Under the pieces are notes generated by a model. The model saw only the letters and a program-made list of their open reading frames with translations. It was not told the DNA's origin and searched no databases. Shown piece by piece: positions 14,044 to 22,932 of a stretch of 22,932 nt of DNA. The position numbers and the translations under genes are program-made. The number at the start of each line of letters is the position of its first letter. Positions within the stretch are counted from its first letter, which is position 1. The stretch comes from a virus (Duplodnaviria > Heunggongvirae > Uroviricota > Caudoviricetes), in the IMG/VR virus record IMGVR_UViG_2690316152_000015, positions 1 to 22,932 of that record. One strand, given 5' to 3'.

Positions 14044-15948
14044 TTAGAACGATGTTACCCAGCTACGGCCTCTATTTGGACGTCTGGCGATGTTTTGACG
14101 TTGTGGTCGTGTGATTGGCTTACTTTCTTCTATTTGCTCGTCAGATTGCGTTTCAGGAGCTTTTACGGGTTCTTCTGGTTCGCGGTTCAAACTATCTTTG
14201 ATGGCTTCCAGTTTTTCCCATGACATTTTATTAAGCACATGACGATAACTAGCCACGGCATATGTAAGACAGTCCAATCCCTCGTTACGTTGCTGTCCAA
14301 CTTTTACCCAACGTGTCGTATTACCCTGCCGTTTCAACTGTTCAGATAACAATTGTTCGCAGTAGTCATCAGGAACGTCACCAATCTGGAAGACAGTATG
14401 CGGATCGCTGTCTCTCAAGTTCCGGTTAATCATTTCACGGATCATCGTCTTAAGATTGTTTACGCCCAGAATTTTAAGGGTAAAACCGCCCGTTCTTGTG
14501 TCCTTGACCGGAAGGATTGGAGCATCAACATTGCTTGCACCCTTAATGGCGCATAGGTTTTGCCACCTAGTGCAGAAGCGATAGATCACGTTTGTAGCTC
14601 GTCCGTTCGATGAGTCCACGAAAGCAGATAGCATCGGGATTCGTTGACCGGATCGGGTATAGAATTTAGCTTTCAGGAAGTTGTAAAGCTGGTCATATGC
14701 TGGTGATTCGTGGCGTTCGCAGTTCACATCATAGAATGATCGGTGATCAACTACGCATATCCCCTTACGAGAGATACCCAGCAAGGTAGATTCAAGACGG
14801 TCTTTTTGCTGGTCAACACCACTAACCAGAGCAAGTACATCATCAGGAATATTGTCTAGACTAATATCAGTTTTCAGCGTTTCCAGTTCGTCGGCTGTGC
14901 GGTCTTCGTTAAGATCATCGAAGGTTTCACCGAGGACTGTATTGTAGAACGTTGCCAGTGACATATTCGCGTAGCTATCAGCAAAGTCCACCACACACGC
15001 ACGGATAGAACTAAACGGAGACATAAGGCGGTTAGCATGAAAACCGATTACTTCCGCGTTTGGTTCGGTTGCTACCCATTCACCTTGAGCAACAGCACGT
15101 AGGCGAGCCCCTTCTGTCCAATCGGTTTCACATGACGGGCAACGGTAAACGGCTGTGTCAGGATTCGGCAGTGATTTACCATTGATTACATGCCAATCAA
15201 AGAAAACTCTACTCCATTCCATTACGTGTTTGTGTCCGCAATGCTGGCAAGGAACATAGTATTTCCTCTTATCCGAGAGTTCCCATTGTTGGTTTATCGC
15301 CCCATCACGAGCGGTTGGAGTGGAAGCAATTATGATCCTTGCGTCATCCCCGAAAGTGGTTGCGCGTTGTTCCGCTAGTTGGATCGGGTTCCCTTCGTCT
15401 GACTCATCAGCCGCATCAACTTCATCAAGAATAATCAAAGGGAGTGTTTTACCGCGAAGATGTGACGGACTATTCAACGACATGAAATACATGAATGATC
15501 CGTTACGAAGCTGAATAATCGATGAGTTGTTAACGGCATTGCGATCTGACTTGTCGGTGATCATCGCCTTTAATTCTGGGGTTGCCTCTAATACTGGCTT
15601 CACCTTACCCGCAATCCATGAGTTCAATTCTCGAACGTTTGCTTGCAAAACACCGATGTTAGTAGGGTTGCTGGCGATCCTGTGAAAGATAATACCGTTT
15701 AGCACAAGAGTTTTACCCAACTGCGCCGAGCACTTTAGAACAATTTTTCGCCTATCTTCGGTGATCGCGTCCATCATTCCACGTTGGAAGGGATGCAATT
15801 TAATTAGCGATCCGGCTTTAACACCATCGGTAGCAACTACATTAGCCTCTACCCATTCGCTAGGTTTCATGGCTTTAGGTGGGCGAATTGCCGCAGAGAT
15901 ATTTTTAAGAATCTTTTTTAATTTGGCCTTATTAGAAATCAGTTTCAT
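14044..15948 (-). CDS. terL: Terminase large subunit, GpA (lambda A)-like
   Basis: 634-aa ORF; deviant Walker A (CSAQLGKT), Walker B (LIILDEVD), zinc-finger-like CxxC pairs and C-terminal nuclease region as in lambda gpA; first gene of the minus-strand late operon. Confidence 0.9.
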   Translation of the reverse strand: MKLISNKAKLKKILKNISAAIRPPKAMKPSEWVEANVVATDGVKAGSLIKLHPFQRGMMDAITEDRRKIVLKCSAQLGKTLVLNGIIFHRIASNPTNIGVLQANVRELNSWIAGKVKPVLEATPELKAMITDKSDRNAVNNSSIIQLRNGSFMYFMSLNSPSHLRGKTLPLIILDEVDAADESDEGNPIQLAEQRATTFGDDARIIIASTPTARDGAINQQWELSDKRKYYVPCQHCGHKHVMEWSRVFFDWHVINGKSLPNPDTAVYRCPSCETDWTEGARLRAVAQGEWVATEPNAEVIGFHANRLMSPFSSIRACVVDFADSYANMSLATFYNTVLGETFDDLNEDRTADELETLKTDISLDNIPDDVLALVSGVDQQKDRLESTLLGISRKGICVVDHRSFYDVNCERHESPAYDQLYNFLKAKFYTRSGQRIPMLSAFVDSSNGRATNVIYRFCTRWQNLCAIKGASNVDAPILPVKDTRTGGFTLKILGVNNLKTMIREMINRNLRDSDPHTVFQIGDVPDDYCEQLLSEQLKRQGNTTRWVKVGQQRNEGLDCLTYAVASYRHVLNKMSWEKLEAIKDSLNREPEEPVKAPETQSDEQIEESKPITRPQRQNIARRPNRGRSWVTSF

Positions 15949-16035
15949 GTAATTACCCTCATTACGAAATATGAAGGTATTTATTAAGTTGTTGATTTTT
16001 TGATAAATACGGGTATTAAGATTTAAGGGGGTTGT

Positions 16036-16641
16036 ATGCTAATTAATCAGCAACAAAGAGATGAATTAGAATTAGCCTTTTCTTGTTGTACCGATCATGA
16101 ATATCGTTTACCAGTTAAACACAAGCATTTAAAAACAGATATAACCACTTCTGGCTTTAGTCGTGAGGACGCGAAAGAGATTTTAATAGAATTGTACCGC
16201 GATAATGGATATAGAGATCTTCACAACTTCTTTAGAAAGCATCGCACATCACATACAGAGTTTCAGAGAGTCCGAGAATGGTTTGATTTTGACATTAAAC
16301 GGTTCTATCGAGTAGATGGAGGCCAGATCTATAGATTGCAGTGGAAGCCGATCAGAGAAGTGTTGAAACAGACAAGGGATAATATGGCTATTACAATGCC
16401 ACGTAACATAGCTTTTAAGAAAGGATATGGTGATACAAGGGAACTATTCGTTGAACTCGCTAACGTGAAGTACAGCCACTATTACAACGATCCTAAATCC
16501 TTCTTTGAAGTGCTTCGCAAGGTTGATATAAGTCGGGGTACATATTATTCACGGTTGAAGAAGTACGGGATTAAGGTTGAGTTCTTTATGAGTATTGACG
16601 ATGGAGAACTTTTTCCTATAAAATCTAAGTCCTCTAAATAA
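16036..16641 (+). CDS. Hypothetical protein with C-terminal HTH-like segment; low GC, rare codons (moron-like)
   Basis: 201-aa ORF with Shine-Dalgarno AAGGGGG; rich in AGA, ATA, TTA codons unlike neighbours; C-terminal DISRGTYYSRLKKYGIKV resembles the HTH of the two small proteins at 16671-16904 and 20012-20191. Confidence 0.55.
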   Translation: MLINQQQRDELELAFSCCTDHEYRLPVKHKHLKTDITTSGFSREDAKEILIELYRDNGYRDLHNFFRKHRTSHTEFQRVREWFDFDIKRFYRVDGGQIYRLQWKPIREVLKQTRDNMAITMPRNIAFKKGYGDTRELFVELANVKYSHYYNDPKSFFEVLRKVDISRGTYYSRLKKYGIKVEFFMSIDDGELFPIKSKSSK

Positions 16642-16670
16642 AGGTGAACATTCACTTTAATTTGGAGAAA

Positions 16671-16904
16671 ATGACTATGACTACTAAAGCTACTCGCGGT
16701 CGCCCTGCCCGTTTTAACGCTGAACAGATGGCTGATATTGCCTACGCTTACTATACAGCGGATCGTGGTAAGGAAGCGAAAGAACAGATTCTTAGTGAAC
16801 ATGGGATCTCAATCGCCCAATTCTATAAGAATATGAAGAAGTTAGACATTAAATTCTATGTTCAGATCGGTGATGGTCAGATCGTAGAAGCAACAGGTTT
16901 TTGA
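16671..16904 (+). CDS. Small HTH DNA-binding protein (small-terminase or transposase-type HTH)
   Basis: Likely start is the ATG at 16671 (GGAG 5 nt upstream) rather than the track GTG at 16644; motif GRPARF...ILSEHGISIAQFYKNMKK follows the GRP..F...G.S..T.YRWL pattern of Sf6-type TerS and IS3 OrfA HTH domains. Confidence 0.55.
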   Translation: MTMTTKATRGRPARFNAEQMADIAYAYYTADRGKEAKEQILSEHGISIAQFYKNMKKLDIKFYVQIGDGQIVEATGF

Positions 16905-16912
16905 TTCTCTTT

Positions 16913-16938
16913 GCCACTCTTCGGAGTGGCTTTTTTAT
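16913..16938 (+). terminator. Intrinsic terminator for the plus-strand HTH genes
   Basis: GCCACUC-UUCG-GAGUGGC (7-bp stem, UUCG tetraloop) followed by U6. Confidence 0.75.
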
Positions 16939-16949
16939 ACCTACAGAAA

Positions 16950-16978
16950 ACAAAAAAGCCCCTGAAATTCAGGGGCAA
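16950..16978 (-). terminator. Intrinsic terminator for the Rha-family gene (convergent partner)
   Basis: Hairpin GCCCCUGAA/UUCAGGGGC preceded by A6 on the plus strand, giving a U-tract on the minus strand. Confidence 0.7.
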
Positions 16979-16984
16979 AAATTA

Positions 16985-17800
16985 TTACAGTCCAAAGACT
17001 TCCAGAGAGCCAGCATTCTGGCGGATACGTTCAGCAGCTTTATTTTGAATCAGAATAGTGTTGTTCGGTTTAGGCAGATTCAGAGTTGCTTTCTGTTCTT
17101 CTTCCAGAACACCCAATTCAACCAGCACCGGAAGCACATCAACAGTAAACTCAAGCTGGTAATGAGCATTCATGCGGCAGAAAGACAGAGAAGAATCATT
17201 AGCAACATACCCACACGGCTTGTTATTTTCATCATAGACGCGCTCAATATATCCAGCAGTACGCAAGGCCGTCAGTGCTTCTTTAACCTTCGTAGCGCCC
17301 TTTTTAGCGCCTAACAGACGCGTCATTGAATGGCTATCTACAGACTTACGAACATGAAGTTCAATCAGCTTTTTATTTTCGCGAGTTTTCTTTAACGCCA
17401 GTTCGATCCAGTCGGTTTCTTCAAAGTCTGCATACGGGTTAACGGCTAAACGTTCCTGACGCAGTTTTTCATTTTCTTCTTTCAGTCGTTTCCATTCCTG
17501 AATAACAACCAGACGACGATTAACATCGTAACCAGTGACAAGAGTCAGCGTCATTTCTTCGTCTAAGTGATATTCGGTTTGTTCACGTCCACACTGGTCA
17601 AGATAGGTGCGCTCAAAACTGAGCACATCTAATTCCAGAGCATCGAGCATGGATTTAATATCACGTTTAACGTTTTTGTGTTCTTTTCCGGTAAATTCAG
17701 CGATCTGACGGGAAGACATGGTCAGCGGTTTGGTGTTATCAACAACCAGAGACACGGAAGCAGTTTTAACAGCAGTATTCATAACAGTAACAGTATTCAT
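16985..17800 (-). CDS. Rha-family phage regulatory protein or antirepressor
   Basis: 271-aa ORF; N-terminal SSRQIAEFTGKEHKNVKRDI matches the Rha-domain signature as I remember it; C-terminal region resembles antirepressor C-terminal domains. Confidence 0.75.
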   Translation of the reverse strand: MNTVTVMNTAVKTASVSLVVDNTKPLTMSSRQIAEFTGKEHKNVKRDIKSMLDALELDVLSFERTYLDQCGREQTEYHLDEEMTLTLVTGYDVNRRLVVIQEWKRLKEENEKLRQERLAVNPYADFEETDWIELALKKTRENKKLIELHVRKSVDSHSMTRLLGAKKGATKVKEALTALRTAGYIERVYDENNKPCGYVANDSSLSFCRMNAHYQLEFTVDVLPVLVELGVLEEEQKATLNLPKPNNTILIQNKAAERIRQNAGSLEVFGL

Positions 17801-17886
17801 AGTATTAATTCCCCTTAAACGGTTTAGTGATTTGGTCCTCCTAGTTCCGGCATCTCAACCGGAACAATTTTATTTATAAGAAGTTT

Positions 17887-18039
17887 TTATCTCATCTTAG
17901 ATTCGGCAAGACAGCGATCAATTTCTTCTTGAATGAGGCGTTTGCGCTCGTGGAAATCAACCATTGAGAAATTCAGGTTAGGTGTCCACGGTTTGCGGTT
18001 CGGGTTTTTACGTCCATCAATTTTCTTGGTAGTGTTCAT
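17887..18039 (-). CDS. Small basic protein (50 aa), not in the supplied ORF track
   Basis: ATG at 18039 preceded by AAGAGGATG-type Shine-Dalgarno; MNTTKKIDGRKNPNRKPWTPNLNFSMVDFHERKRLIQEEIDRCLAESKMR; lies between the promoter at 18098-18126 and the Rha gene. Confidence 0.4.
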   Translation of the reverse strand: MNTTKKIDGRKNPNRKPWTPNLNFSMVDFHERKRLIQEEIDRCLAESKMR

Positions 18040-18097
18040 AATTAACATCCTCTTTACAAATCTAGGTCAAATCGGTTCAAAGTTGTCAAGTGCGACA

Positions 18098-18126
18098 ATC
18101 ATAAAAAAGCCAGAAAAATTTGTCAA
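18098..18126 (-). promoter_or_regulatory. Sigma70-type promoter directed toward the Rha gene, with overlapping palindromic operator
   Basis: On the minus strand TTGACA (18126-18121), 17-nt spacer, TATGAT (18103-18098); the -35 is one half of the inverted repeat TTGTCAA-N6-TTGACAA (18120-18139); further TTGACA-like hexamers at 18065-18157. Confidence 0.5.
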
Positions 18127-18161
18127 CACCCCTTGACAAGATGCCAAAGGGTTGACCTAAC

Positions 18162-18629
18162 TTACAGCATATCTAAGCCTTCATCATAGCCATAGAAGCC
18201 ATTCTGAGAAGAAAAAGCGATTGGTGCATAGTCATCGTCATCTTCGTCTTGTTCGTCTTCTTCTGGGGCTTCCTGAGCGTTTTCTTTACCGTAGTTAAAC
18301 ATTGCTTCGTCCAGTTCACGAAGAGTCAAGAAGCTACCCAGATCAATGTCACCGGAACGGACTTCAAACGGCAGATCATCACGAACAATAATTGCTGGTA
18401 GATTCTGGTACTTTAAGCGGTCTTCATCGGTGAAGCAGTTAACAACGATGGTCGGCTTCTTATTACGGAAAAACGCATACCATGCACTAGAGAAATGGGA
18501 TTCATCAGAGTTGAAAAGAATGTTGTAACGACGTTCAACAAAGATTTTCATTAACTTGTCATTGTGGAAGCTATCAGCATCAAAACCTAACAGGATGAAA
18601 GGAGTAGTGGTAGTCATTTTATGGTTCAT
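18162..18629 (-). CDS. Hypothetical acidic protein
   Basis: 155-aa ORF with AGAGGA Shine-Dalgarno; C-terminal third strongly acidic (EEDEQDEDDDDY); no recognisable catalytic motif. Confidence 0.55.
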   Translation of the reverse strand: MNHKMTTTTPFILLGFDADSFHNDKLMKIFVERRYNILFNSDESHFSSAWYAFFRNKKPTIVVNCFTDEDRLKYQNLPAIIVRDDLPFEVRSGDIDLGSFLTLRELDEAMFNYGKENAQEAPEEDEQDEDDDDYAPIAFSSQNGFYGYDEGLDML

Positions 18630-18835
18630 AGTGGAAATCCTCTAAAAGAAAGTGAATCAAGTAAGTACACTATTATTTATAACGAGAAAATTTTATCTCT
18701 TTTAGAAGGTGATTGTATTCAGTCGGGCTAAAGCCCTCCTTCATAGATTGTCTAAAAGTACATCAAACGTGGACCCTTCATTATGTAAATTATAGATCAT
18801 ACTCGTTTGAAGAAATAATAATCAGAAAGCAATAT

Positions 18836-18872
18836 AGCAACCGAAGGTTGCAATCCCGAAGGGATACCAATA
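18836..18872 (-). other. Two tandem UUCG-tetraloop hairpins in the minus-strand leader
   Basis: Minus-strand RNA UCCC-UUCG-GGGA and GCAACC-UUCG-GGUUGC, adjacent; upstream of the acidic-protein gene. Confidence 0.4.
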
Positions 18873-18889
18873 CCTTTCATGATCATTAA

Positions 18890-19135
18890 AGTGATCTAGA
18901 ATCATCTAGTAACCAGTTAACTACTATTATCTTCAAAGTGATTATTACTATCTTTCTAGAATCAGTTAGTAACTAGTATTAAATCCCTTTCGAGAAAATC
19001 CTTTCAGAAGTGATTCTCGATGCCACGCAGTGGCGTCGCAGACGTTTGAGAGTGAGCGAAGCGAGCAAGCAAACTAGTTAATTCCTTCTAAGACCATCTA
19101 GTATCATCTAGTTTAAATTAGTTGTTACTAGAAGC
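18890..19135. repeat. CTAG-rich direct and inverted repeats (candidate operator array)
   Basis: Nine CTAG tetramers in about 240 bp; repeated CTAGAATCA[TG][CT]TAGTAAC[CT]AGT at about 18896 and 18957, related CATCTAGT copies near 19096-19115; internal palindromes AGTTAACT and ACTAGT. Confidence 0.5.
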
Positions 19136-19261
19136 AATTGGTTGGCGCTTCGCGCAGTCGGGCTACGCCCTCCTAATATCTTTTTGGTTATTTGTTGTTT
19201 TTAGTTTTACACATGAGCGTAGCGAATGTGTTTATATAATATCTATGTACGCCGAATCCCC

Positions 19262-19447
19262 GCTTTTGCCCCTCACTAAGTTAATGTTTTATAAAGAGTT
19301 TTTCTCACCATTCCTTTTCGGGGGCAAATTTCAGGGGCAAAAATTAGATTTTCAGGGGCAATTATTGACATTTCAGGGGCAAAAATGGGATAGTGGAATC
19401 TTGGGGATTTTGTTCGGGGGCAAAAATTCAAAATTTCAGGGGCAATT
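19262..19447. repeat. Iteron-like array: six direct and one inverted copy of TTYCRGGGGCAA(A) with 21-bp periodicity
   Basis: GGGGCAA cores at 19321, 19334, 19355, 19376, 19417, 19439 (spacings 13, 21, 21, 41, 22) plus inverted copy at 19266-19272; followed by perfect palindrome CTATCAAA-TAT-TTTGATAG (19449-19467) and an AT-rich tract. Confidence 0.6.
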
Positions 19448-19641
19448 TCTATCAAATATTTTGATAGAAAATTCTTGTATATTATTTAACCAAAAAATCA
19501 CCAAAAATCGCTGCAACTTAATGATTTAAAAGAAATTTTCACTTACAAACGCAGTCATAATAGGTTATAAAGGTTGATAATCGTTATTCGCCATTTTCAA
19601 GCAAAATTTTTGATAGTCTTTTCTCGCTTAGATCAAGGGTA

Positions 19642-19670
19642 TTGACAACTGTCAAGAACTATTTTATACT
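19642..19670 (+). promoter_or_regulatory. Near-consensus sigma70 promoter with palindromic operator over the -35
   Basis: TTGACA (19642-19647), 17-nt spacer, TATACT (19665-19670); the -35 lies in the inverted repeat TTGACA-AC-TGTCAA. Confidence 0.65.
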
Positions 19671-19676
19671 TTTTCT

Positions 19677-19834
19677 CGTTGGTGGGGGTTGAAATTTTCT
19701 AAACAGTCCCCATATAGATGATAAGCAAGAATTTCCGCGTTATAAATACATGTGTGAAATGATTGTTCACTTCTGAAAATCCCCTGATTCACTGTTAATT
19801 CATACAGCACTGGTTAGATATACAGTGCTTTTTC
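19677..19834 (+). ncRNA. Candidate short transcript or attenuated leader from the promoter at 19642
   Basis: Predicted start about 19677; intrinsic terminator AGCACUG-10 nt loop-CAGUGCU followed by U5 at 19806-19834; duplicated GATATACAGTG and TTATAAATACA[AT]GTG motifs in the leader; the first downstream gene starts at 20012. Confidence 0.3.
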
Positions 19835-20011
19835 GGTTGAATAATGTACGAATTGATTAATTATTAATCTTCTCTTTAGCAATTCGTGCTCCCACTGATC
19901 GGATATACAGTGGTTTTACAGGGTTTTCTGAAAATCATTTTATAAATACAAGTGTTCAGAGCGAAAAGCTCTTTTTTAAGATTTTTTAAACCTAACAATA
20001 GGGGATTAAAA

Positions 20012-20191
20012 ATGGCTAAACCTGTACGATTCACACGAGAGGTATTGCTTCCGATTGCTAAACGTTATTTTGAAGCGATGCAGGGTGACAAGCTGGCGGT
20101 TTTGAAGGAAGAAGGAATTGATCCTTCTGATTTTAGAAAACTGCTAAAACGATATGACATTAAAGTGAAGATTGAAGCTACCGTTTGGTAA
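20012..20191 (+). CDS. Small HTH DNA-binding protein, paralog of 16671-16904
   Basis: Likely start ATG at 20012 (AGGGGA Shine-Dalgarno) rather than the track GTG at 19952; KPVRF...VLKEEGIDPSDFRKLLKRYDIKV aligns with the 16671-16904 product at about one third identity by eye. Confidence 0.55.
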   Translation: MAKPVRFTREVLLPIAKRYFEAMQGDKLAVLKEEGIDPSDFRKLLKRYDIKVKIEATVW

Positions 20192-20224
20192 TAACCTTTC
20201 ACTGAGAATTATATGATGGCTTTA

Positions 20225-20262
20225 AAAATAAAAAAGCCCCCTTGCGGCAACAAGGAGGCTTT
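20225..20262. terminator. Stem-loop flanked by A-run and T-run (possibly bidirectional terminator)
   Basis: AAAAAA-GCCCCCTTG-CGGCAA-CAAGGAGGC-TTT; 8 of 9 stem positions pair. Confidence 0.45.
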
Positions 20263-20305
20263 CAACATGACACATTAACTAACAAGAGTATTCAGGAGTA
20301 TTTAT

Positions 20306-21265
20306 ATGTTATTTTCCGCTAACTTTTTCACTAACGAAGTAACCAACGCTAAAGCAGTTATCAAATTTGGCACCGAAGCAAACAAGAAGATTCAGCCGAA
20401 AGTTGTTGCTCATGTTTCCTTTGCGCAGCAGAAATCCGCTTTCGCTGGCTTTAAAGCACATCGTGAAGCACTGATCGCGGCTGGCTTTGGTGTTGACGGT
20501 AAACTGCCTAACGGCGTTCGTAAAGCAATCGACCGCGTTAAACCTGCTAAAGACGTTGCAGTAGACCACATCGTTACTTTCACCGTTAAGAACTCTTCTG
20601 AACTGTTCCACCTGGTGATTGCTGGTGATACTGCTATCGTTTCCGCTCCTAACATGGATTTTCAGGATACCGCTGATTGTCAAATCACCTTCGGTCGTCG
20701 TAAAGAAGTTACTGGAAAAGCTAAACTGAACTTCACCAAATCCGGCAATACTTACTTTGCTGTATTCTTTAACAGCCATGCTACCGAGAAAGAAGTTGTA
20801 GAACTGGTTGCATATGAAGGTGAAGAAAAAGCACGTATTGAATCCTGCGACGCTTTCGTAGAACTGGAAGCACAAGTTAAGGCGGTTGCTCCTGTTGTTG
20901 AAGATCGTCTGGCTGCACTGGAAGCAGAGATTGCAGAACTGAAAGCTGCACTGAAAGAAAAAGACCAGATCATCGAAGCCCAGAAAGCTGAGATTGAAGA
21001 ACTGAAAGCTAAAGAAGTTGCTCCAGTGGCAGTTGAAGCCGAACAGGAAGTTGAATCTAAAGACTTCTTTACTCAAGCGGTTGAAGCTAAAGACAAACAA
21101 GCTCTTTGGATTCTGCTTAACGAAAAACGCTCTGTGACCGACGTTGCAGAGTGGAACAAATATCTGGTTAAGAAAAACGGTACTTCTGTTCAATTCATCG
21201 ATTTAATGACTGTTCAAGTTTTTGATGCGTTCGAAAATGTGTTCGACGTTCGCAAAGCAGCTTAA
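20306..21265 (+). CDS. Hypothetical protein with central coiled coil; codon usage of a highly expressed gene
   Basis: 319-aa ORF with CAGGAG Shine-Dalgarno; strong preference for CTG, CGT, GAA, AAA, GCT codons; heptad-like segment RLAALEAEIAELKAALKEKDQIIEAQKAEIEELKAKE; function not recognised. Confidence 0.6.
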   Translation: MLFSANFFTNEVTNAKAVIKFGTEANKKIQPKVVAHVSFAQQKSAFAGFKAHREALIAAGFGVDGKLPNGVRKAIDRVKPAKDVAVDHIVTFTVKNSSELFHLVIAGDTAIVSAPNMDFQDTADCQITFGRRKEVTGKAKLNFTKSGNTYFAVFFNSHATEKEVVELVAYEGEEKARIESCDAFVELEAQVKAVAPVVEDRLAALEAEIAELKAALKEKDQIIEAQKAEIEELKAKEVAPVAVEAEQEVESKDFFTQAVEAKDKQALWILLNEKRSVTDVAEWNKYLVKKNGTSVQFIDLMTVQVFDAFENVFDVRKAA

Positions 21266-21285
21266 TTTTAATTGGAGACCCTACT

Positions 21286-21657
21286 ATGGCAACTTTAAAC
21301 GAAAAAGCATTGTCACGTAAAACTCTGAAAGAGAAAAACATGATTCTTTCTGAAACGCTAAAACAGACTAATGCTGAGTGTGAGTTCTTGACCATTAAAC
21401 TTTCACTTAAAGAGAAAGAATGTAAGGAACTAATTGAAATGAATCGTTCTCTTTTGGAAAAGATGGAACGGATTGAATCCTTCTATGATAGTTACGTGAA
21501 ACTTAGTGAAGACTTTAAAGCCATGCAAGAAGACTACAAGAAATCGTTGAGGGAACAGATTAAACTGCATGAAGAATTGAAGGGCTATCGTGAAAAGGCT
21601 GTTAAAGAAAAGAAAGTACAGAAGATGAAAAACAAAGGATTGCGGCTTGTTGCATAA
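21286..21657 (+). CDS. Hypothetical coiled-coil protein
   Basis: 123-aa ORF with GGAG Shine-Dalgarno, 21 nt after the upstream stop; Lys/Glu-rich helical composition. Confidence 0.55.
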   Translation: MATLNEKALSRKTLKEKNMILSETLKQTNAECEFLTIKLSLKEKECKELIEMNRSLLEKMERIESFYDSYVKLSEDFKAMQEDYKKSLREQIKLHEELKGYREKAVKEKKVQKMKNKGLRLVA

Positions 21658-21664
21658 TAAAAAA

Positions 21665-21692
21665 GGGAGTCCCATTTAAGAGACTCCCTTGA
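21665..21692. terminator. Stem-loop terminator at the end of the plus-strand gene pair
   Basis: GGGAGUC-10 nt loop-GACUCCC; A-run upstream gives a U-tract on the minus strand. Confidence 0.5.
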
Positions 21693-21761
21693 CTTAGGTT
21701 AAGGTTAGGTTTGCACAACAAGATGAGGTTTATAATGAACATGATGCTACATTATCTAGTA

Positions 21762-21795
21762 AAGCCAGAAAAATAACCGCCTCTTTCGAGGCGGG
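21762..21795 (-). terminator. Intrinsic terminator for the small-peptide transcription unit
   Basis: Minus-strand hairpin CCGCCUC-GAAAGA-GGCGG followed by UUAUUUUUCUGGCUUU. Confidence 0.5.
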
Positions 21796-21953
21796 AGGAT
21801 TAATACTCAATCTATACTTGTTATGTTTTTATGATGTATAGATCACTGACTATGAAAACACTGTACTGGAGTGTGTTTTATGGCTTTTAATCGGGAACTC
21901 TCTTTCAAAAGCTCCCTGTTAATAACCATGTAGGAGAAAGGCAGATTACAATA

Positions 21954-22127
21954 TTATTTAGTGTCTGATTTACAGCAGCAAAAAAGAATAAACAAAAAGA
22001 AGCATACCCAGCCGTAAGGCGTACCGATTAGAAATTTGAAAAACACCACCAGCGATATAAAAATTAATTTAACACCAGCGACGATAGTCAAAAACAGCAG
22101 AGTAGCGAAATAGACAAAAAGATCCAT
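21954..22127 (-). CDS. Small hydrophobic membrane peptide (57 aa), not in the supplied track
   Basis: ATG at 22127 preceded by AAGAGGATTATCT; MDLFVYFATLLFLTIVAGVKLIFISLVVFFKFLIGTPYGWVCFFLFILFCCCKSDTK; two predicted hydrophobic helices. Confidence 0.45.
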   Translation of the reverse strand: MDLFVYFATLLFLTIVAGVKLIFISLVVFFKFLIGTPYGWVCFFLFILFCCCKSDTK

Positions 22128-22180
22128 AGATAATCCTCTTTGAAAACGACCATCATCTATAGTTCAATTCATCGATTTAA

Positions 22181-22282
22181 TTAATGATACTTGAAAGCGT
22201 TACACACAGCAGAAATGCCAATATGTGCAAGTGAATATACGATAGTTAATCCTACAGCCAGATAAATCAAAAATTCAACCAT
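22181..22282 (-). CDS. Small hydrophobic peptide (33 aa), not in the supplied track
   Basis: ATG at 22282 preceded by GAGGATTTACCT; MVEFLIYLAVGLTIVYSLAHIGISAVCNAFKYH; same Shine-Dalgarno style as the 57-aa ORF. Confidence 0.35.
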   Translation of the reverse strand: MVEFLIYLAVGLTIVYSLAHIGISAVCNAFKYH

Positions 22283-22299
22283 AGGTAAATCCTCAAATA

Positions 22300-22331
22300 A
22301 GAAAAAGGTTAGCGGGGGGTGATTCCCCCCG
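22300..22331 (-). terminator. Intrinsic terminator downstream of the Nu1-like gene
   Basis: CGGGGGG-UGAUU-CCCCCCG hairpin followed on the minus strand by UAACCUUUUUC. Confidence 0.55.
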
Positions 22332-22380
22332 TAGACGTTGACCAACTCAACATCTTTCATACATTTATTTATAACGCGTT

Positions 22381-22932
22381 TTAAGACACATCAAATTCAT
22401 CGTCTTCTTCTGGTTCTTGTTCCGGTTCATCCATTAATGGTAATTCTTCTTCCTCGTCTTCTCCTAAATCCGCATTTTCGAACAAGTCCCCTACTTCGTT
22501 TAAACGACGCTCGATGATCTCCCTTAGCTTATTCTTCAATGTTTTCTGATCGGTGGCAGATTCGAGAATTTCTAAAGCGTCGATTGTGGCGATCTGCAAA
22601 ATAGTCTGTTTCACCTTTCCGCAATATTCCGCTAGTTCCTGTTCTACATAACCGACCGGAATCAGGAGATTCATCGCTTCCTGGTTCTCTCGTTCGGCTG
22701 CATCCGCGAGTGCTCTTTCCCGGCGTAATTTCTCGACATCTATTTGTTCTTTGATAGAAGTTTCTTTGAGCGGATTAATGATGTTCTTCAAGACCCATTC
22801 TGTCCCCTCTTTGGCTGGCACGCGTCGTGTATTGGTATTAAATGGCATTCCTCGTTCTTGCCATTTCTTAGCGGCGTTAATTGTATAGCCGTATAAGCGG
22901 GAAATTTCTGTAAGGGTTAATTCTTCTTTCAT
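22381..22932 (-). CDS. Nu1-like terminase small subunit (winged-HTH DNA-binding N-terminus); start coincides with the window edge
   Basis: N-terminus LTLTEISRLYGYTINAAKKWQERGMPF parallels lambda Nu1 (LADIFGASIRTIQNWQEQGMPV, from memory); shared EKLRRE segment; acidic C-terminal tail; located about 6.4 kb from the large terminase gene. Confidence 0.55.
   Translation of the reverse strand: MKEELTLTEISRLYGYTINAAKKWQERGMPFNTNTRRVPAKEGTEWVLKNIINPLKETSIKEQIDVEKLRRERALADAAERENQEAMNLLIPVGYVEQELAEYCGKVKQTILQIATIDALEILESATDQKTLKNKLREIIERRLNEVGDLFENADLGEDEEEELPLMDEPEQEPEEDDEFDVS

Follow-up and report, generated by a model that had tools for sequence, protein, structure and literature searches.

Two strong sigma-70 promoters of an uncharacterised E. 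coli prophage family, P- and P+, carry TTGAC-type boxes arranged in 29-bp units, which overlap or flank the core promoter or the start site at both. Comparison of relatives supports the view that these elements are constrained much more than their surroundings, in E. coli and across to Salmonella. We assign a probability of about 45% to the reading that the boxes are operators for one DNA-binding protein, which would silence both early units.

Prophage family and early module

The window, that is, the whole stretch of 22,932 nt that was analysed, is part of an E. coli prophage of approximately 34 kb. Contigs with an identical 155-aa protein are E. coli chromosomal, beside prpCDE and a truncated codB. 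A relative with around 90% identity, the PEC41 prophage, is inserted in ycdX and has a length of about 36 kb, two insertion sequences included. Its far end encodes a large serine recombinase; the prophage also carries genes for lysis and tail proteins, a portal gene, a GpA-type large terminase and a gene in which protease and capsid are fused. Of 5426 complete E. coli genomes, 54 (ca. 1%) harbour the family, which also occurs in some strains of Salmonella and Proteus. Megablast detected nothing matching the region among 50,697 phage records, and tblastn of the 155-aa protein against phages was equally negative. A large terminase that is clearly related (44% identity) was seen in a single phage record, that of Escherichia phage DCP80 (PQ671644.1, 141 kb), which has the same order of terminase, 160-aa gene, portal and capsid; its filing under Straboviridae looks at odds with a GpA-type terminase. 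An IS3-family transposase orfB at the left edge of the window (positions 1-888; rve E = 1e-25, HTH_21) is part of an insertion sequence located in the tail region of the prophage or next to it.

The small and large terminase genes are not adjacent, being separated by a 6.4-kb early/regulatory, non-structural module (Table 1) that also includes 319-aa and 123-aa plus-strand genes and 1.38 kb of repeat-rich non-coding DNA. The Rha-family gene additionally matches PHROG 63 'anti-repressor Ant' (E = 8.9e-19). Other than Rha and the terminases, no module protein had a credible match in Pfam, PHROGs or NCBIfam; an Rfam scan of 15900-22932 yielded sub-threshold noise only, and literature searches with protein accessions and motif strings found nothing relevant. 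As anticipated by the original prediction, which saw no obvious CI-like repressor gene, Pfam searches recognised no CI- or Cro-like repressor across the whole PEC41 prophage.

The 155-aa protein has a highly acidic C-terminal tail and is the product of the most variable gene in the module (36-93% identity), with homologues at 43% identity or more in E. coli/Shigella only; such variability would be typical of an arms-race gene, for example one for anti-defence. In the non-coding DNA, the repeat TTTCAGGGGCAA(A/T) occurs in at least six copies at 19320-19450, about 21 or 42 bp apart, with one at 16958-16984 and more copies in some relatives. This iteron-like array might serve as an origin of replication or as a site for terminase binding (cos/pac). 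A second repeat family, at 18895-19119, comprises four TCTAG(A/T)ATCATCTAGTA-type repeats together with GC-rich short palindromes (e.g. GCCACGCAGTGGCGTCGC).

Table 1. Coordinates, in the window, of the genes, promoter elements, box units and other features discussed in the text
Feature	Position	Strand	Remarks
Large terminase gene	14044-15948	minus	Left border of the module
201-aa gene (p201)	16036-16641	plus	
75-aa gene (p75)	16677-16904	plus	
Rha-family, Ant-like gene	16985-17800	minus	PF09669, E = 1.7e-13
50-aa ORF	17887-18039	minus	First gene after P-; called on identical contigs and, by PGAP, in relatives
Downstream unit, CTTGACAACTTTGAACCGATTTGACCTAG	18090 to 18062	minus	About +2 to +30 of P-
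P- -10, TATGAT	18103 to 18098	minus	17-nt spacer; invariant in 21 E. coli
P- -35, TTGACA	18126 to 18121	minus	Invariant in 21 E. coli and 3 Salmonella
Predicted RNA hairpin, GUCAACCCUUUGGCA-UCU-UGUCAAGGGGU(GU)UGAC, then AAAUUUUUCUGGCUUUUUU	18121-18157	minus	Overlaps the P- -35
Upstream unit, CTTGACAAGATGCCAAAGGGTTGACCTAA	18132-18160	plus	About -41 to -69 of P-; inverted relative to transcription
155-aa gene	18162-18629	minus	Stop codon at 18162-18164
Third unit, CTTGACAGTTGTCAATACCCTTGATCTAA	19656 to 19628	minus	About -49 to -21 of P+
P+, TTGACA-17-TATACT	19642-19670	plus	Kept as a unit even in different flanks (Salmonella relative L037)
LexA-like box	19790-19809		18.5 bits
LexA-like box	19808-19827		20.3 bits; 2-nt overlap with the preceding box
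LexA-like box	19893-19912		14.6 bits
59-aa gene (p59)	20012-20191	plus	
Nu1-like small terminase gene	22381-22932	minus	Right border of the module
TTATAAATA copies	17871-17879, 18674-18682, 22366-22374	minus	
TTATAAATA copies	19740-19748, 19940-19948	plus	

Promoters and TTGAC boxes

We scored the 7-kb early module (15900-22932) against the sigma-70 consensus, and P- and P+ were its two best matches, each agreeing at 11 of 12 consensus positions. Both had been foreseen, P+ as a strong plus-strand promoter at 19642 and P- as a minus-strand TTGACA/TATGAT promoter for the Rha gene, and both stand as predicted, conserved sigma-70 promoters. The transcription start of P- would lie at about 18091, from the spacing to the -10. 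P- sits in a 113-bp gap between the 155-aa gene and the 50-aa ORF, and its assignment to Rha holds in part: a strong, conserved sigma-70 promoter does lead to Rha, but the gene that P- immediately precedes is the 50-aa ORF, which has a Shine-Dalgarno sequence (GAGGA, 18048-18052) 8 nt before its ATG (18039). Rha lies 86 nt beyond this ORF, with its own TTATAAATA motif upstream. Over approximately 16 nt, which run from upstream of the -35 through it, P- and P+ are homologous (TCAAGGGGTGTTGACAA versus TCAAGGGTATTGACAA).

The motif TTATAAATA was found five times in the window, against 0.36 expected. Each of the copies lies between genes and is oriented towards the gene that follows it (Rha, the 155-aa gene, the 59-aa gene or a 59-aa ORF), with common flanks (cgTTATAAATAnanGTGT) and without a -35; the Proteus and PEC41 relatives contain the motif too. 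Similar to the T4 late-promoter motif TATAAATA, it may mark a second promoter class.

Five TTGAC(A/C) hexamers surround P-, one of them the -35 and the other four forming two inverted 29-bp units. CTTGACA occurs only three times in the 22.9-kb window, always in the P- and P+ regions, likewise TTGAYCTAR, and the two lie 13 nt apart each time, producing three copies of a 29-bp unit, CTTGACA-N13-TTGAYCTAR. None of 500 first-order Markov sequences contained this composite pattern, which was defined post hoc from the data. TTGACA is not enriched window-wide (12 versus 15.1 expected); three or more copies within 60 bp arose in 3 of the 500 simulations, and five or more TTGAC[AC] within 100 bp in none. 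We rejected additional promoters, on either strand, that would use the extra TTGACA boxes as their -35, since the hexamers 16-18 nt downstream (CCTAAC, TCTAAG and CCTAGA) lack the key A2 and T6.

The elements had originally been described as palindromes built on a half-site common to both promoters. TTGTCAA-N6-TTGACAA lies exactly at 18120-18139, where the first box of the upstream unit meets the -35, and TTGACA-AC-TGTCAA is present at 19642-19655, where the TGTCAAG box of the third unit (19650-19656), in the P+ spacer, pairs with the -35; the further hexamers GGTCAA (18065-18070) and TTGACC (18152-18157) were also found. TTGTC-N6-GACAA exists as well, but at 18083-18098, one base to the left of its reported place, and it is not conserved; patterns of the type TTGTC-N4-10-GACAA numbered 2 versus 0.22 expected, a count reached in 2 of 100 shuffles. 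As for the shared half-site, a TTGAC-type element does recur at P+, but with different orientation and gap: half-sites point outward across 6 or 7 nt at P- and inward across 2 nt at P+, so that one symmetric dimer could not read both sites alike. Because TTGNCAA is its own reverse complement bar the centre base, any two copies resemble a palindrome, and the reported ones exist because an extra TTGAC box adjoins the TTGACA -35, with CTTGACA located 6 nt upstream of the -35 at P- and 2 nt downstream of it at P+. The arrangement thus lacks the fixed inverted geometry at each promoter of lambda/434-type palindromic operators; likewise, no adjacent, co-inherited CI/Cro-type gene was detected, with no family match in the prophage.

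Conservation of the boxes and alternative explanations

We compared 21 distinct E. coli versions of the P- intergenic region, taken as 126 bp. Its identity was never below 88% in the 54 of 5426 genomes, and was about 95% among the 21 versions; the adjoining 155-aa protein goes down to 53% identity, the first ORF after P- is one of three unrelated genes (ORFs of 50, 110 or 59 aa), and the Rha N-terminal domain shows 34-90% identity. Within the gap, none of the 24 positions in the four non-promoter TTGAC(A/C) hexamers was variable, as compared with 36 of 71 positions elsewhere when the -35, -10 and ribosome-binding site are left out (Fisher p = 1e-6, an optimistic value that overstates the case, because the sequences are related and non-independent). 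The hexamers spared from variation are exactly those named in advance. Both boxes of the upstream and of the downstream unit are invariant in E. coli, with variation in the spacer of the upstream unit; the spacer of TTGTCAA-N6-TTGACAA also varies in sequence, and is 7 nt long in two relatives. At P+, 12 E. coli and 3 Salmonella sequences all share both the TGTCAAG in the spacer and the pattern TTGAC-N2/3-TGTCAAGAAC, the intervening 2-3 nt being variable. Conversely, of the 20 other distinct E. coli versions, 19 have T in place of C18096 (giving GATAA) and L038 alone has C, and we judge the right arm of TTGTC-N6-GACAA to be a nearly strain-specific, chance feature.

Salmonella and Proteus prophages were reached through homologues of the 201-aa protein. 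All three Salmonella relatives contain TGTCAAG upstream of the P- -35, TTGACAA at +2 and TGTCAAG in the P+ spacer. One of them (L035) keeps both P- units, with diverged spacers, and is the only one to retain the TTGACCT boxes; in the other two (L036 and L037), TTGACAA persists at +2 and TGTCAAGGGG precedes the -35. At the position of the P- -10, the Salmonella sequences have TGnTAGCAT or TGnTAACAT, which are functional equivalents, and in L037 the P+ module is set in completely different flanks. The Proteus relative (L034) is devoid of Rha, the small ORF and P-, and AGCAAG replaces TGTCAAG at its P+.

Other E. coli relatives contain an alternative P+ module, with tandem consensus promoters amid three GTGTAGG repeats. 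In L016 (3150-3280) and L038 (upstream of a 60-aa gene) the promoters are TTGACA-17-TATACT and TTGACA-17-TATAAT, and the three repeats surround the first -35. These repeats may constitute a different operator specificity; exchangeable sets of operators would be expected to give an alternative P+ with a different triple repeat, as observed with GTGTAGG.

A heptamer in a promoter spacer or over a start site occupies a classical repressor position, and the conserved heptamers in the P+ spacer and at the P- start hence favour the operator reading. A single sequence-specific protein, of host origin or conserved in the phage, would bind the TTGAC boxes at P- and P+, blocking the P- start site and the P+ -35/spacer, and both early transcription units would be kept silent in the lysogen. 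What the sequences show directly is the sites, how they cluster, how well they are conserved and where they lie at the promoters; protein binding, repression and the binder are inferred from these. The observations that count against the operator model include the box spacing of 19 bp, which is a non-integral number of helical turns, and the absence of TTGACCT from two of the three Salmonella relatives.

It is also possible, although we find it doubtful, that the inverted repeat at 18120-18160 is an intrinsic terminator of the 155-aa gene, with the -35 falling in the descending stem, and that TGTCAAG and GGTCAAC are conserved for pairing with GTTGACA and not for repressor binding. Starting 5 nt past the 155-aa stop codon, the 15-bp hairpin leads into a U-rich tract (AAAUUUUUC after the long stem, AUUUUUC after the short stem), and none of 200 shuffles was as stable as the 66-nt fold (-22 kcal/mol, z = -4.2). 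The same hairpin is found in L035, L036 has a different GC-rich hairpin (CCCCCUGUCAAGGGGG) in the same place, and in the shorter stem the spacer behaves as a loop might, differing between relatives in sequence and in length (6 or 7 nt). However, hairpin pairs showed 0 of 13 compensatory changes and several uncompensated breaks in the GGGG arm, within a highly conserved sequence; the U run is set off from the stem by three A residues, and our terminator scan did not flag the site. Pairing also fails to account for the invariant boxes at +2 and +21 of P-, or for the TGTCAAG of the P+ spacer, where the loop would be only 2 nt. A terminator is compatible with the operator model and does not exclude it, and the hairpin of the upstream unit may have a second role in ending transcription of the upstream gene. 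Pairing between the two 29-bp arms in read-through RNA was discarded, as the minimum free energy fold contained the local hairpin only.

We consider it rather unlikely that host LexA is the main early-region switch and that the TTGAC boxes are promoter-strength or architectural elements, or relics of promoter duplication. Using a LexA weight matrix built from an informal set of E. coli sites, which scored at least 12.4 bits (median 19.3), the top three hits of the window all lie in the 335-nt leader from P+ to the 59-aa gene; with CTGT-N8-ACAG cores, they score within the range of these sites, the 95th percentile of shuffle maxima being 16.0 bits. The boxes are conserved and stronger in the Salmonella relatives, one being near-perfect (TACTGTATGAATATACAGTA, 25.4 bits), and palindrome-type P+ modules are always accompanied by them; additionally, Pfam found no CI-like gene in the prophage, and the homology between P- and P+ suggests duplication. 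Nevertheless, the inferred P+ start (near 19677) is 113-235 nt upstream of the boxes, which lie on neither consensus promoter, none is near P-, and relatives with the alternative P+ have no LexA boxes and yet keep the boxes of P-. Duplication, for its part, fails to explain zero variation in the boxes beside flanking positions that are about 50% variable, and the matrix itself rests on that informal set of sites. No convincing promoter overlapping the LexA-like boxes was found in the window; in L037, a LexA-like box lies between TTGGCG and TATATT. Given that the top hits fall in the P+ leader and travel with the palindrome-type P+, host LexA is a serious candidate regulator of the rightward operon, where it would act independently of the TTGAC boxes.

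Finally, it is very unlikely that the region is just a conserved boundary for module recombination with extra TTGAC hexamers as hitch-hiking chance features: homology in many relatives does begin or end only a few bases from where the 50-aa ORF starts (18035-18045), the flanking genes are mosaic on both sides and TTGACA lacks window-wide enrichment, but variation is strongly non-uniform and avoids exactly the pre-named hexamers, the boxes persist in Salmonella despite largely rewritten flanks, and TTGAC clustering exceeds chance.

Candidate binders and comparable systems

The original prediction proposed one of the small helix-turn-helix (HTH) proteins as the repressor, which the comparison does not support: p59, p75 and p201 have been exchanged or have diverged with no relation to the invariant sites, and none is singled out. 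p59 and p75 are paralogues (E = 3e-10), and p201 consists of two copies of the same domain. This domain, of about 55 aa (RPxRF...GIxxSxFxKxxKKYxIK), thus occurs four times, twice in p201 and once each in p75 and p59; a model of it suggests a three-helix HTH plus a beta hairpin, and a sequence search of the PDB with a p201 profile returned nothing credible.

We rejected p59 as reader of the sites, since the same allele occurs with both types of P+, and p75, which is absent from L035 although that relative has the sites. Likewise, unrelated ORFs take the place of the 50-aa ORF with no change in the sites, the Rha N-terminal domain varies without co-variation with the sites, and p201 is represented in L038 by a 50%-identical allele with identical boxes. 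In Proteus, p201, p75 and p59 are kept without the boxes. Because no protein tracks the sites, a host factor or a conserved core protein is as likely a binder as the small HTH proteins, among which p201, with its tandem HTH, would be the best phage candidate, if a weak one. A T4 gp33-like coactivator role for p59, an idea prompted by the TATAAATA motifs, was dismissed, as the match to PF16805 (E = 0.029) is far below threshold and was treated as chance. Comparison by eye with the sites of IHF, Fur, DnaA, CusR and RutR and with MerR-type spacer dyads gave no fit; the TTGAC-N4-GTCAA of P+ has, by eye, an FNR-like geometry, a candidate lead.

The organisation around P- recalls the immI region of phage P22, in which Pant precedes arc and ant under the control of Arc and Mnt operators. 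In both, a strong sigma-70 promoter is followed by an ORF of about 50 aa and then by an Ant/Rha-type antirepressor-like gene, with operator-like repeats over the start site and beside the -35. Unlike in P22, the 50-aa ORF has no detectable ribbon-helix-helix signature or family match and is exchanged while the sites are constant; besides, the prophage has no divergent mnt-like gene, and its sites are unrelated to the Arc and Mnt operators.

Operators of the P2 C repressor are direct repeats about two helical turns apart that flank an early promoter. Each unit of the prophage similarly has two direct-repeat boxes about 19 bp apart at an early promoter, but the box sequences are unrelated, the units also form an inverted pair, no C-like protein was detected, and the second box is gone in some Salmonella relatives. 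LexA controls prophage modules in Bacillus phage GIL01, coliphage 186 (tum) and the Gifsy phages (antirepressors). As in these, SOS boxes would lie upstream of an early/antirepressor operon, in a prophage lacking an evident cleavable CI-type repressor; in contrast, the putative boxes are in the long P+ leader, off the consensus promoter, and concern P+ instead of P-.

The sites of the L5 gp71 repressor, known as stoperators, have the sequence 5'-GGTGGMTGTCAAG (PMC3029335). Like these, the boxes are asymmetric, contain the complement of a -35 (TGTCAAG), and occur in fixed orientation at an early promoter and within the transcribed region. They differ in host and phage lineage, in that no gp71-like repressor was found in the prophage, and in number, with three units as compared with 24-34 sites genome-wide in L5 and Bxb1. 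The TGTCAAG in common with L5 is probably just the complement of the -35.

Taking the candidates together, a family without a repressor of its own is conceivable, in which a host or core-phage factor would read the 29-bp TTGAC units and host LexA would gate the rightward operon, although we deem this improbable. If true, immunity would be largely outsourced to the host, which would explain why the operator region is invariant and the neighbouring regulatory genes are freely exchanged. The element is of an ordinary kind: a phage promoter for early genes whose boxes are probably operators, within a prophage family that is uncharacterised. Almost none of the early genes of this family belongs to a curated family, and two early promoters, conserved boxes and LexA-like boxes together supply a concrete map of its lysis-lysogeny switch; the boxes, if they are operators, would be a handle for finding the missing repressor.
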